NCBI GenBank assembly: GCA_016197365.1
Contig: JACPVS010000016.1
Location: 11,909 to 75,908 of the forward strand
Reading direction: 5' to 3'
Length of the DNA stretch: 64,000 nt
Origin: Mycolicibacterium cosmeticum
GTDB taxonomy: Bacteria; Actinomycetota; Actinomycetes; Mycobacteriales; Mycobacteriaceae
Shown: piece by piece, positions 45,401 to 48,400 of the stretch
How positions within the stretch are numbered: the first letter of the stretch is position 1
Layout of the letters: the number at the start of each line of letters is the position of its first letter
Program-made: the position numbers

Positions 45401-48400
45401 CCGGTCGAACGTGAGGAAGAAGTTCGGCTGCGCGCGCCGCATTGCCTGTTGGCTCGGGATGTCGGCCTTGTCCAGTTGGCAGAAAACCTTACCGCGCAAC
45501 AGCTCCGCAGCGATCGGCGAACGCTGGCGCCCGCTGGCACCTTCCAGCACCGAACCGTCTTCCCGGTAGAAGGTGGCAAAGTGGTAGAAGGCCGTCTTGG
45601 TGACCGACGTGCCCGCCGGGGCGATTCCGTAGGCATTGGAGAATTCCATCCCCGAGAGTTCGGCGCCGGCCTCCACCGCGAACAGCGTGCCGTCGCCCGT
45701 ATTCACATCGCAGCCAAGCGCTTTGGATTGGAAGGCGCAGCCGCCGGTGGCCAGCACCACCGCGCCGGCCCGCACCCGGTACGCCCGCTGGACCTGACGC
45801 CGGTAGCCCGCCGCACCGGCCGCCGCACCGTCGGCAGCCGCCAGCAGTTCCGTGACGGGACTGTGGTCCAGGATCCGGACCCCGGCGCGGCGCAACAGGA
45901 TCCGCATCCGGCGCATGTACTCGGGCCCCTGCAGGCCGCCGCGCAACTGCACACCGTCAGCACCCACCGGGAACGGAAACCGGGCCGCATCGGCGAATTC
46001 GTTGATGCGATGGTAGGTCTCGTCGAGTACCCTCGCCGCCCACCGGTGGTCGGCGAGGTAGCCGCCCAGGGCGTCGCGGCTGGCGATCGCGTCCGCGCGG
46101 GCCTGGGCGTCCGGCGGGACGTACCAGACACCGGTCCCTGCCGACGCGGTGGCGCCGCTGGTGCCGCAGTAGCCCTTGTCCGCCAGCACCACATCCGCGC
46201 CACCGGCCGCCGCCCGCAGCGCTGCCCAGCTCGCGGCCGGGCCGCCGCCTGCCACGAATACGTCGGCGGTCAGCTCGTCGAGCTCATCCATGTCCAAACC
46301 CCCTGAGCGCAGCCATGTTCGGTCTACGGTAACCACGCCGGAAGCAAATCCACCACGGCTGCGATCGCGCCGAGTAATAATCGCGCGGGTGTCGAACTGT
46401 TGTTGCCTGCCCTCGCGCTGGGCAGCATCACAGCAATGAGGCCACGTCTGTCAGCACTGTTGATCTCGGCCCTGGCGGTTACTGCCCTGGTGTCGGCCTG
46501 CGGGTCGTCGTCGCACAAAGCGGCGGTCGAGGACGGCAGATCCGTCATCCGCTACCAGGGTTGGGCCAGCCAGGTCACCTATCCCGAACTGGCCGAGAAT
46601 CTGGGTTATTTCCAGAAGATCAAGTTGAAGTGGGTCGGCAACACCACCAGCGGACCGCAGGACATCCAGTCGGCCGCAACCGGAGACACCGATTTCGGCG
46701 GCGCCTTCAACGGCGCGGTGGTCAAGCTGGCTGCTGCCGGCTCCCCCATCACCTCGATCATCGGCTACTACGGATCGGACAAGGAGAATTTCACCGGCTA
46801 CTACGTGCGGGCGGACAGCCCCATCCGCACTGCGCACGATCTGATCGGCAAGAAGTTCGGGATGAACACGCTGGGAGCCCACCAGGAGTTCGTCATGCGC
46901 GAATGGCTGGCCCGCCAGGGCCTGTCCAACGACGACATCAAGAACGTCGAGCTGACGGTCGTCCCACCGGTCAATGCCGAACAGGCGCTGCGGCAGAGCA
47001 ATATCGACGCGGTCGCACTGAACGACATCTGGCGGGACCGAGCCCTGGCACGCGGTGGGCTGCGCCCGTTGTTCACCGACGGGTCCCTGTTCGGCGATTT
47101 CACCTACGGCACATATGTCGTACGCAACGACTTCCTGGCCGCCAACGCCGGCGCCGTCGCCGACCTCACCCAGGGCACCGCCCGCGCCATCCGCTGGGCG
47201 CAGGTCACCCCGCGCGATCAGGTGATCGCGAAGTTCAAGCAGATCATCGGGGCTCGTGGCCGCAACGAGAGTGCCGACAACGCCGACTACTGGAAGAGCA
47301 CCGGCGTCGCCGAACCCGGCGGCGTGATCACCGAACAATCGCTGCAGCTCTGGATCGACTGGCTGGTCCGAAACGGTGAGCTTCAGCAAGGCAAGTTGCA
47401 GGCGAAAGACTTGTACACCAACAAGTTCAACCCGTACTCCAACGGCACCTATCCCGCCGCGGCAGGTCCCGATGGCCAGGCCGTCGTCCGCTGACCGGCC
47501 GCCGGGCCCCCAGGTCCTGCACCGCGCCGTCGCCATCCTGACCGCGGTCGGGGACGCCGACCCCGGCATCTCGCTCACCTCGCTGGCCGCCAGAACCGGG
47601 TTGCCCCTGAGCACCGCCTATCGACTCGCGCAGGCGCTGCTGCACGACGGACTGCTGGAACGCGCGGGCGACGACGAGCACTACCGCGTCGGGTCCGCAC
47701 TCGTCGCGCTGGCCGCCCCGGCCGCACACCGGCTCAACGTAGCGGCCCTGACCCCGCACCTATACGCGTTGGCCGGGGACATCGAGATCACCGCGAGCTT
47801 CGGCCTGGCCGAGACCGACGACATCGTGACCATGTGCACGGCCCGACCGGCGCGCCGATTCTGCACGAACCAGCTCCCGGGAGCCCGACAACCGCTGGCG
47901 CACAGCGCGATGGGCATGGCGGTCGGGGCTTTCACCCGCGGACAGGGCTGGTCGGTACTGGAGCAGGTGCGCCGGCGCGGGTATGCCGACGCGACCGGCA
48001 GTCAGGGCCATCATGTACGCGCCATCGCGGTACCGGTGTTCGACGGCAACGGGCGGGCCTGGGGTGCGGTCGGCGTGCAGGCGTTGCGGCGCAGACTCAC
48101 CGACGACCTGATCCGCGAGATCCTGCCTGTCATGCAGCGCCATGCGCAGCGCATCGGCACGAGCCGGGACATAACCTCATCCTGAGTCTCTTTCGCATGG
48201 TGAAAGCCGCCTTCCCGGGCTCGCCGTGGCGCGCCACCATGGACAACCATGACCATCGCTATCGAAAAGCACACTCCAGCAGCACAAACCGTGACCTTCA
48301 CCCCGGTGGCCGGCCACATCGGCGCCGAGGTGAGCGGGCTCGACCTGCAGACCGGCCTGAGCGCCGAACAGGTGGGCGCCGTGCGGGCCGCGCTGCACCG

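Follow-up and report, generated by a model that had tools for sequence, protein, structure and literature searches.

A polycysteine reading frame placed where a mycobacterial leaderless transcript would begin raises the question of whether it senses cysteine or arose in a promoter conserved at the level of DNA. The frame lies in the window, a 64,000-nt stretch of Mycolicibacterium cosmeticum DNA (contig JACPVS010000016.1), and the first-pass annotation had proposed it as a cysteine-sensing attenuator heading a sulfonate/sulfate-ester operon. Comparison with orthologous promoters favors a different answer. The segment 46359-46435 is probably core promoter, operator and 5' leader, and the mini-ORF a young by-product, not an evolved cysteine sensor.

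The operon and its divergent neighbors

Pfam matches identify the following genes on either side of the intergenic region.

44370-44870: 4Fe-4S ferredoxin gene, after the flavoprotein gene
44705-46291, minus strand: divergent FAD flavoprotein gene, sharing its intergenic region with the binding-protein (SBP) operon
46436-47494, plus strand: SsuA/NMT1-type lipoprotein SBP, the operon's first gene, its ATG invariant in all orthologues
47472-48185: IclR
48249-49193: TauD
49294-50367: second SBP
50364-51185: ABC ATPase
51055-52017: permease

These matches bear out the SBP-IclR-TauD-SBP-ABC gene order claimed earlier, and the sulfur context holds as well, with SsuA-like SBPs, TauD, the divergent flavoprotein/ferredoxin pair and cysD-cysNC about 6 kb from the operon. 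The additional claim that the short ORF (sORF) independently supports the organosulfur assignment is unwarranted, because that assignment rests on the Pfam matches.

The ATG at 46436 opens a canonical lipoprotein signal peptide, MRPRLSALLISALAVTALVSAC/GSS. An alternative SBP start at TTG 46400 was considered, since three of the four codon changes relative to the nearest relative, L032, are synonymous in that frame, yet it was rejected. The ATG is unchanged across 15 orthologous sequences and yields the canonical lipoprotein signal, the upstream peptide is unconserved, L051 is frameshifted, and the chance of the three-of-four pattern is about 0.11. An 87-aa ORF that encloses the sORF (46176-46439) was likewise rejected as a gene; it runs antisense to the flavoprotein gene.

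The orthologue set comprises eight other promoter sequences, seven of them distinct, as L104 repeats L036. Six of the eight have the full arrangement, with ferredoxin and flavoprotein genes diverging from SBP1-IclR-TauD-SBP2-ATPase-permease; L051 is without IclR and TauD, and L123 is a short contig ending in IclR. The SBP of L032 is 95% identical to that of the window. The locus is rare in the genus, as a DNA search of 400 genomes found one further promoter copy only (L104), and a metagenome scan with the conserved promoter pattern added one locus, L123, of the AACGGTTGT type. Divergent flavoprotein/ferredoxin synteny is kept in all mycobacterial orthologues and in the Nocardia sequences L037 and L042.

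Promoter elements and the mini-ORF

The intergenic region is 144 nt long. The elements that concern the mini-ORF, all on the plus strand, are listed here in order.

46359-46367, plus strand: conserved block CTGCGATCG (CTGCRATCG in orthologues), part of the putative operator, 5' of the -10 element, with an AATCG-like half-site
46371-46383, plus strand: imperfect palindrome CGAGT-AAT-AATCG, a putative repressor operator containing the -10 element
46376-46381, plus strand: -10-like hexamer AATAAT (TAAAAT in most orthologues), 7 nt before the GTG
46389-46439, plus strand: 16-codon ORF from GTG to TGA, encoding VSNCCCLPSRWAASQQ and then stop, a lineage-specific candidate leaderless sORF
46395-46403, plus strand: conserved DNA motif AACTGTTGT (AACNGTTGT), which supplies the first two "Cys codons" and lies 41 nt before the SBP ATG
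46398-46406, plus strand: TGT TGT TGC, three consecutive Cys codons, codons 4-6 of 16
46398-46435, plus strand: predicted RNA hairpin in which UGUUGUUG pairs with CA..ACAGCA, and CUGCCC (46407-12) with GGGCAG (46420-25) around a 7-nt loop
46427-46431, plus strand: ATCAC, whose ATC is unchanged across all 15 promoter sequences from mycobacteria and Nocardia (alignment A3)

Read directly from the sequence, the hexamer occupies 46376-46381 within gTAATAATc and is followed by a 7-nt spacer, cgcgcgg (46382-46388). The frame then runs GTG (46389), TCG, AAC, TGT (46398), TGT (46401), TGC (46404), CTG, CCC, TCG, continues with CGC, TGG, GCA, GCA, TCA, CAG, CAA, and stops at TGA (46437-46439), which shares ATGA with the SBP start codon. 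The first-pass annotation had this anatomy base-exact: the AATAAT, the 7 nt and the GTG frame with three Cys codons are in place, a CTGCCC-N7-GGGCAG stem is present right after those codons (46407-46412 / 46420-46425), and the stop overlaps the first binding-protein ATG at 46436. From the position of the hexamer, +1 of the transcript is predicted at G46389 and may lie one base earlier, at G46388. The mini-ORF may well be translated, as RTG at +1 suffices in mycobacteria. No full -35/-10 promoter emerged from a generic sigma-70 scan, as is usual in mycobacteria.

Several DNA blocks around the hexamer are conserved independently of any reading frame. The CTGCGATCG block is near-invariant in nine mycobacterial promoter sequences and can be aligned to TTGGAATCG in Nocardia, with variable sequence between the conserved promoter blocks (alignments A1 and A3). 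The palindrome takes the form CGATT-AA-AATCG or GATTT/AAATC in orthologues and CGATT-GG-AATCG in Nocardia, and in the window it is the sole AT-rich stretch of the intergenic region. A whole-genome search for the palindrome combined with the block found no second site of the same architecture, and no regulon could be defined from it. Further 3', AACNGTTGT lies at -41 from the ATG in seven of the eight sequences measured and at -42 in L051; the spacing in L123, counted by hand, is likewise -41. The motif reads AACGGTTGT (Asn-Gly-Cys) in L034, L036 and L123. A search of the window for GAACTGTTGT with one mismatch gave four matches against 1.4 expected, none informative. In most mycobacterial orthologues ATCAC forms part of AGGATCAC, which holds the Shine-Dalgarno AGGA; AGGA has changed to AGCA in the window and L032, and the other mycobacterial orthologues keep AGGATC. 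Toward the divergent gene, a conserved (C)ATGTTCG block occupies 46314-46321, and the flavoprotein Shine-Dalgarno GGGGG is the complement of 46299-46303.

The mini-ORF in orthologous promoters

Members of the mycobacterial Cys ribulon are conserved families, and on this point the mini-ORF differs from them. An RTG-initiated ORF at the start site was found in none of the eight other orthologous promoter sequences. Where the window reads GTG TCG, L032 reads GCG CCG and lacks RTG; the Cys frame is start-less in L033 and L051, and in L035 and L043 a GTG is present only upstream of the -10 element. The CGCCG state occurs in L032 and five further sequences (L034, L035, L036, L043 and L123), and L033 and L051 carry another non-start sequence at this position, so the GTG TCG of the window is derived. 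Moreover, the third Cys codon, TGC, is common only to the window and L032, and the GCCC/GGGC stem is also present in L032; as that relative is start-less, neither evolved for the ORF.

The substitution pattern also points to constraint on DNA. The third-position T's of TGTTGT never change, compared with only 1 of 10 T-ending two-fold SBP codons that stays T in all eight orthologues; two invariant third-position T's therefore indicate constraint at the nucleotide and not the codon level. As DNA, the TGT pair stays the same also in promoters whose frame gives Asn-Gly-Cys or lacks a start. Identity between the window and L032 is 82% over the sORF and 88-92% in the flanks, making the sORF the least conserved segment compared, and all five codons that changed are non-synonymous in its frame.

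These observations bear on how unusual the frame is. A crude genome scan returned about seven short non-coding ORFs with CCC and a suitably spaced -10-like hexamer, including three homologues of published attenuators, and a short ORF of leaderless geometry with three consecutive Cys codons is, taken alone, rare. That rarity is the wrong null, because TGTTGT belongs to a DNA motif of all orthologous promoters, whatever the frame; with the motif in place, all that has to be added is an RTG in the right frame at the start site. In M. tuberculosis, 22% of transcription start sites carry RTG (PMC4633059). An origin by chance in one of about five lineages is plausible, with a probability on the order of 0.2-0.3 by our own rough estimate.

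The preferred reading of the segment as promoter and operator can be set out as follows. The SBP-IclR-TauD-SBP-ABC operon would be read divergently from the flavoprotein/ferredoxin pair, and three conserved elements would be functional: an array of AATCG/CGATT half-sites whose palindrome contains the -10 element, the AACNGTTGT motif, some 10 nt beyond the predicted start site and 41 nt ahead of the ATG, and the ribosome-binding region (A)GGATCAC. Two C-to-T changes confined to this genome (GCGCCG to GTGTCG) would have put GTG at the predicted start site, in frame with a pre-existing TGTTGTTGC, and thereby produced the 16-codon Cys-Cys-Cys frame that ends on the SBP start. A repressor or activator bound to the conserved operator would be the more likely means of controlling the operon, with its own IclR as one candidate. 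The operator-like blocks, CGATT-N2-3-AATCG over the -10 element and AACNGTTGT at about +10, themselves undescribed, are the more probable regulatory handles, and the mini-ORF is at most a newborn member of the Cys ribulon. Several points count against the by-product reading, among them the promoter geometry shared with bona fide leaders of this genome, the cysteine response seen with such sORFs in M. smegmatis, the predicted pairing of the Cys codons ahead of the AUG, and the single genomic copy of the palindrome and block combination. The chance of such an ORF falling ahead of a sulfur-scavenging operon is small should the motif be unrelated to cysteine; in addition, the SBP lost its AGGA in this lineage, and the uORF could thus matter for translation.

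Attenuation, reinitiation and known regulatory systems

Polycysteine leaderless sORFs are a real class, as the first-pass annotation had it, and the same genome has clear homologues of three published ones. The Cys ribulon includes Ms5788A/Rv0815A, Ms4527A, Ms4533A, Ms4536A/Rv2334A, Ms5280A, Ms0113A and Ms0932A (Canestrari et al. 2020, bioRxiv 10.1101/834739; Shell et al. 2015, PMC4633059). In M. smegmatis, every leaderless sORF with three Cys codons or more in a row was associated with a cysteine response (bioRxiv 10.1101/834739). An easy origin is ascribed to sORFs of this sort, as many start sites lie within one or two changes of RTG.

The mini-ORF resembles these leaders in several respects. 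Its GTG lies 7 nt after a -10-like hexamer, the same spacing as in the Ms5788A, Ms4527A and Ms4536A homologues of this genome (NANNNT hexamer, 7 nt, start codon). It has three consecutive Cys codons, mostly TGT, where the ribulon calls for at least two in a short ORF, and it is the first cistron, on the same strand and directly upstream, ahead of sulfur-metabolism genes. As in Ms5788A, a predicted pairing joins its Cys codons to the stretch ahead of the next gene's start. On the other hand, the published families are conserved across many mycobacteria (bioRxiv 10.1101/834739, Fig 8 and Table S3), whereas the mini-ORF is kept in no other operon-carrying species. Its cysteines occupy codons 4-6 with 10 codons following, instead of lying at the C-terminus or close to it; an RRxVD-type peptide motif is absent; the frame ends on the downstream start, unlike Ms5788A with its 97-nt spacer; and its duplex is short and statistically unremarkable. 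Pairing of a Cys tract with the next gene's ribosome-binding region in a stable duplex is shown for Ms5788A only. The downstream genes also differ, being devoted to organosulfur scavenging (SsuA-like SBPs, TauD); the words "sulfonate", "taurine" and "TauD" are absent from the available text and supplement of the preprint, Table 1 aside (bioRxiv 10.1101/834739). Descent of the mini-ORF from a copy of the Ms4527A leader, suggested by "CCCLP" in both, was rejected because the motif is ancestral in the promoter and the RRHVD part is absent.

RNA folding gives the stem little distinction. In the predicted hairpin, the Cys codons would pair with the 6 nt that precede the SBP AUG and so sequester them. 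The hairpin's centroid, about -17 to -18 kcal/mol, has a z of -0.89, and 38 of 200 shuffled sequences folded equally well; the energy of the structure with the predicted UGUUGU/ACAGCA and CUGCCC/GGGCAG pairing does not surpass that of shuffles (z = -0.89 and +0.36). RNAalifold on nine orthologous leaders returned zero conserved pairs, and single-sequence folds of the nine were in no case better than shuffles. A scan of 46200-46520 for intrinsic terminators found none, there is no T-tract, and CATCACAGCAATG follows the stem. Transcription attenuation by the stem was rejected on the basis that no intrinsic terminator was found. An Rfam scan of 46150-46600 gave noise only, all far below gathering scores. 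The stem of the first-pass annotation is present, but it forms neither a terminator nor a conserved structure.

Could the frame nevertheless be a newborn, functional translational attenuator, which is essentially the original proposal? With transcription starting at G46389, 70S ribosomes would translate the leaderless sORF and stall at codons 4-6 (nt 10-18) when Cys-tRNA is scarce. The stalled ribosome would cover the 5' arm of the hairpin (nt 10-24) and free the 3' arm and the SBP start, and SBP1 and the coupled downstream genes would be translated. With ample cysteine the sORF would be cleared, the hairpin would re-form, and initiation at an AUG lacking a Shine-Dalgarno sequence would be damped. 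The geometry shared with the three homologues, the run of Cys codons and the sulfur context all fit this scheme, as do two predicted pairings, one between the Cys codons and the ACAGCA that immediately precedes the AUG, the other between CUGCCC and GGGCAG. Short precedents exist, for example Ms5280A (MKARTGIKGCCRAQ, taken as 14 residues), a published member of the Cys ribulon (bioRxiv 10.1101/834739), and near-RTG start sites offer an easy origin. Furthermore, Nocardia SBP2-type ABC/TauD operons carry a conserved Cys-containing leader peptide, so operons of this type do come under leader-peptide control in a related genus. However, no orthologue conserves the frame, the nearest relative has no start, the Cys tract and stem are older than the start codon, and the hairpin is insignificant and unconserved. 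The sORF also spans the hairpin and stops on the SBP AUG. Translation in cysteine-replete cells should then open the structure and permit re-initiation, leaving no clean OFF state; with abundant cysteine, ribosomes would be coupled into the SBP, and the logic of an attenuator is blurred. In sum, the anatomy, class and sulfur context of the original proposal stand, and the Cys codons are predicted to pair ahead of the SBP AUG, but the conservation pattern speaks against a selected attenuator, and a functional one is rather unlikely.

The same overlap suggests another role, in which the sORF delivers ribosomes and its Cys codons are incidental. The leaderless GTG would load 70S ribosomes, which would melt the hairpin, stop at the UGA of AUGA and re-initiate on the SBP. 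Mycobacteria have a described class of leaderless sORFs overlapping the following gene "via a coupled tetramer" (PMC4633059, S1 Fig), the ATGA overlap is present here, and the change from AGGA to AGCA leaves the SBP without a Shine-Dalgarno sequence in this lineage. In these respects the arrangement is like known termination-reinitiation coupling. L032, however, also lost the Shine-Dalgarno sequence yet has no sORF start, and translation of the SBP thus does not need the sORF. The tetramer itself follows automatically from Met-Arg/Lys/Thr N-termini (AGG, AAG, AGA, ACG) and occurs in seven of nine orthologous sequences without any sORF. Coupling here is putative, and a reinitiation device is quite improbable.

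It is unlikely that a cysteine-sensing sORF has been caught at birth through two C-to-T transitions at the transcription start. The AACTGTTGT motif, later extended by TGC, and the hairpin would then already have been present in the ancestor common with start-less L032. If so, the organosulfur-scavenging operon would join the Cys ribulon in this one lineage, and the natural pair of GCG (L032) and GTG (window) would give a before-and-after case of how ribosome-based regulons recruit operons. A working sensor would extend the ribulon to sulfonate/sulfate-ester scavenging and be a rare dated example of de novo operon recruitment by two point mutations. As the evidence stands, the locus is cautionary: a perfect-looking polycysteine leaderless uORF can arise atop a conserved DNA motif, and comparison of orthologous promoters is therefore needed before regulation or function is annotated from such ORFs.

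Other regulatory systems offer partial parallels. Like the trp, his, leu and thr attenuators of enterobacteria, the mini-ORF is a short upstream ORF rich in codons for the amino acid that its operon helps to supply, with a stem-loop after it; unlike them, it has no terminator and no alternative antiterminator pairings, and the stem is inside the ORF. The preferred promoter/operator reading finds its likeness in repressor operators that overlap the -10 element of divergent promoters for catabolic or transport genes, such as those of operons under IclR-family control: inverted AATCG/CGATT half-sites are centered on the -10 element and conserved across two genera, and an IclR gene is in the operon. 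The putative operator differs in that Nocardia L037 and L042 keep the palindrome without a nearby IclR gene, none being detected by tblastn within about 6 kb of these two loci. With respect to codon choice, TGC accounts for 80% of Cys codons genome-wide; the bona fide Cys leaders of this genome are mostly TGT nonetheless.

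The reading frame and its operon

The Cys-Cys-Cys sORF has the anatomy described by the first-pass annotation. The AATAAT hexamer, the 7-nt spacer (cgcgcgg) and the frame from GTG to TGA are present base for base, the stem follows the Cys codons, and the stop overlaps the ATG of the first SBP gene.

46376-46381, +: -10-like hexamer AATAAT, within AT-rich gTAATAATc
46389-46439, +: sORF, GTG TCG AAC TGT TGT TGC CTG CCC TCG CGC TGG GCA GCA TCA CAG CAA TGA
46407-46412 and 46420-46425, +: inverted repeat CTGCCC/GGGCAG, 7-nt loop
46436-47494, +: NMT1/SsuA-type SBP (SBP1; Pfam)
47472-48185, +: IclR (Pfam)
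48249-49193, +: TauD (Pfam)
49294-50367, +: SBP paralogous to SBP1 (SBP2; Pfam)
50364-51185, +: ABC ATPase (Pfam)
51055-52017, +: permease (Pfam)
44705-46291, -: FAD flavoprotein, divergent from the SBP operon
44370-44870, -: 4Fe-4S ferredoxin, alongside the flavoprotein and likewise divergent
39183-40193: cysD
37331-39181: cysNC

The sORF reads VSNCCCLPSRWAASQQ*, with Cys at codons 4-6, and will be translated provided that transcription begins at G46389. Its TGA and the SBP1 start share ATGA. This junction is uninformative, because Met-Arg/Lys/Thr N-termini produce it and seven of nine orthologous sequences carry it. The protein that begins at ATG 46436 has a textbook lipoprotein signal peptide, MRPRLSALLISALAVTALVSAC|GSS. 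The host genome is that of a Mycobacterium/Mycolicibacterium (5.5 Mb, 67% G+C). Pfam confirms the proposed SBP-IclR-TauD-SBP-ABC order; the organosulfur annotation rests on these hits, and the suggestion that the sORF supports it independently is to be dropped.

Orthologous promoters and the origin of the frame

A protein-guided scan of reference genomes located the same operon at L032 (SBP 95% identical to that of the window), L033, L051, L034, L036, L035 and L043. Two more sequences came from a search of the genus and a pattern scan of metagenomes: L104, which repeats L036, and L123, a short contig ending in IclR. The comparison set comprises eight other sequences, seven distinct. By tblastn, synteny from ferredoxin and flavoprotein through SBP1, IclR, TauD, SBP2, ATPase and permease is full in six of the seven; L051 is without IclR and TauD. 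Intergenic alignments of the mycobacterial loci (A1), and with six Nocardia loci added (A3), display blocks of conserved DNA with variable sequence in between:

CTGCRATCG: conserved intergenic block (A1, A3)
CGATT-AA-AATCG: palindrome in the orthologues, containing TAAAAT (A1, A3)
AACNGTTGT: block conserved in the orthologous promoters
(A)GGATCAC: block before the invariant SBP ATG

The palindrome is CGATT-GG-AATCG in Nocardia and CGAGT-AAT-AATCG in the window; TAAAAT within it is the only plausible -10. AACNGTTGT is found at -41 relative to the ATG in seven of eight measured sequences and at -42 in L051; a motif of this type in L123, counted by hand, is also at -41. Window positions 46359-46403 have an operator-like architecture: an AATCG-like half-site, 3-4 nt, CGATT-N2-3-AATCG holding the -10, about 10 nt, and AACNGTTGT. 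Mycobacterial orthologues keep this arrangement, and a genome-wide search returned no second copy in this genome. Nocardia L037-L042 have the palindrome and lack AACNGTTGT. The operon's IclR is a candidate binder of these blocks, although tblastn found no IclR-like gene within ~6 kb of L037 or L042, both of which keep the palindrome.

The Cys reading frame is not conserved among these promoters. L032, the nearest relative, has GCG CCG at the GTG TCG of the window and offers no alternative start; a start codon for the frame is also missing from L033 and L051; L034, L036 and L123 carry AACGGTTGT at the motif, reading Asn-Gly-Cys; and in L035 and L043 the only GTG is upstream of the -10. Because L032 and five further sequences (L034, L035, L036, L043 and L123) have CGCCG, and L033 and L051 another non-start sequence, the window GTG is derived, through two C-to-T changes that postdate its divergence from L032. 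Start-less L032 has both the third Cys codon (TGC) and the GCCC/GGGC stem in common with the window, so these features are older than the ORF and were not shaped by it. TGTTGT itself is constrained at the nucleotide level, because its two "third-position" T's are invariant across the promoters, versus T retained in all eight orthologues at one of ten T-ending two-fold codons of the adjacent SBP gene. Between the window and L032 all changed codons of the sORF frame are non-synonymous, and among the segments compared the sORF has the lowest identity (82% versus 88-92%). Since 22% of M. tuberculosis transcription start sites have an RTG (PMC4633059) and one frame in three would match, an in-frame GTG once among ~5 lineages is unremarkable.

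L034, L036 and L123 have a perfect 12-bp palindrome, CGAACATGTTCG, in the divergent flavoprotein leader/promoter (e.g. L034:5866-5877), which may be a second operator; it is degenerate, GCCATGTTCG, in the window (46314-46321) and L032. Upstream of a more distant SBP homologue (L003:1340-1395, genome G018) the sequence is different and includes an extended inverted repeat, GAAGATCGCGAGATT..AATCTCGCGATCGTCTTC, but neither the AACNGTTGT motif nor a Cys ORF.

Leader RNA and competing readings

We favour, with some confidence, the reading that the segment comprises a core promoter, an operator that overlaps the -10, and a leader of 47 nt. The ORF would then be a recent by-product, created when a GTG came up at the start site in frame with a motif that was already there. 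The alternative of a newborn but functional cysteine attenuator ranks below this and is rather unlikely. Its appeal lies in the predicted fold (centroid about -17 to -18 kcal/mol), which joins the Cys codons, UGUUGUUG, together with CUGCCC to GGGCAG, CA and ACAGCA. The last of these occupies the 6 nt immediately before the SBP AUG, and the fold mimics the pairing at Ms5788A between Cys codons and the region before the next start. Standard ribosome footprint sizes suggest that stalling with codons 4-6 in the A site would mask the 5' arm and still permit initiation at AUG 46436. However, the fold does not outperform dinucleotide-shuffled sequence (z = -0.89 and +0.36), and the same holds for all nine leaders; RNAalifold found no conserved base pair among orthologous leaders; no T-run follows the stem, hence no terminator; and the leader has no Rfam match. 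Furthermore, the sORF extends through the entire hairpin and terminates at the start codon of SBP1, so each ribosome translating it in cysteine-replete cells would open the hairpin and could re-initiate there, a described "coupled tetramer" arrangement (PMC4633059 S1 Fig), leaving no clear OFF state. Anatomy, a real class and sulfur context speak for the attenuator proposed earlier, and the comparison of orthologous promoters goes against it.

Ranked lowest, and improbable, is a uORF that delivers ribosomes to the SBP gene, whose AGGA Shine-Dalgarno has disappeared in this lineage; L032 also lost this sequence yet has no uORF. The loss (ACAGGATCAC to GCAGCATCAC) is seen at 46420-46435 and in L032; AGGA is also absent from L033 and L051 and is kept in L034, L035, L036, L043 and L123. 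ATC 46427-46429 is invariant in 15 of 15 mycobacterial and Nocardia sequences. GGATCAC is presumably identical, not complementary, to the 16S rRNA 3' end just upstream of the anti-Shine-Dalgarno.

The Cys ribulon and a Nocardia leader peptide

The class invoked by the first-pass annotation is real and has homologues in this genome. In M. smegmatis, ribosomes stalled on the leaderless polycysteine sORF Ms5788A were shown to keep its Cys tract from pairing with the Shine-Dalgarno region of the gene that follows, and six other loci respond to cysteine (Canestrari et al., bioRxiv 10.1101/834739). A whole-genome scan for short ORFs outside coding sequence with three Cys codons in a row recovered these clear homologues of published sORFs, all outside the window, which served as positive controls:

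C16:168068-168160, +: Ms5788A homologue, VSARLELLLTKRRAVDLCRVAGCCCCCCSC* (Ms5788A, VSTRLELSLTKRRAVDLCRVAGCCCCCCCC)
C5:101227-101322, +: Ms4527A homologue, VTAPRNSTTGIALVARRHVDFKRTCSCCCLP*
C5:113501-113569, -: Ms4536A-type homologue, MSYDDRMQRATARPVVVLCCCC*, upstream of a TQXA-motif protein

The first precedes a small membrane protein and a gene that, from its N-terminal sequence, we take to be cysA2-like. The second precedes a 555-aa ORF expected to be sirA, because MSMEG_4527/Rv2391 is listed after Ms4527A. In each of them exactly 7 nt separate a NANNNT hexamer from the start codon, as in the window sORF, and the Cys codons are mostly TGT, though the genome prefers TGC 80:20. The window sORF shares Cys codons and sulfur context with the Cys ribulon but not its conservation across species, and would be set apart by its organosulfur-scavenging target, Cys at codons 4-6 and the ATGA junction. 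Even if functional, it would belong to this already known ribulon. A further 23-codon ORF, VTKVSLERAVTYGANSACCCSCD* (C20:255447-255518, -, outside the window), precedes by 97 nt the gene of a secreted protein of 475 aa, judged by eye to be RipA-like (NlpC/P60); this Cys-rich leader fronts a probable cell-wall hydrolase and not a sulfur gene.

Nocardia SBP2-ABC-TauD-type operons have a strongly conserved, Shine-Dalgarno-led 25-codon leader, M-x7-[TI]RRR[AT]VD[LF]MR[VIL]..G.C(C)R.*, about 100-200 nt upstream, at the following and about 10 more loci:

L044:5773-5850
L046:5745-5822
L052:5723-5800
L053:5723-5800
L055:5788-5865
L047:5738-5815

A Shine-Dalgarno-like GGAAG/AAGGA precedes this leader, which is thus of the leadered and not the leaderless kind. 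Its RRAVDLxRV core recurs in Ms5788A (..TKRRAVDLCRVAGC8), and it resembles RRHVD of Ms4527A, but only one Cys is found in most copies. The core peptide is conserved and may have a function of its own, e.g. in ribosome arrest. Because this leader precedes SBP2-ABC-TauD operons, leader-peptide control of the family is plausible in Nocardia, not through the window sORF.
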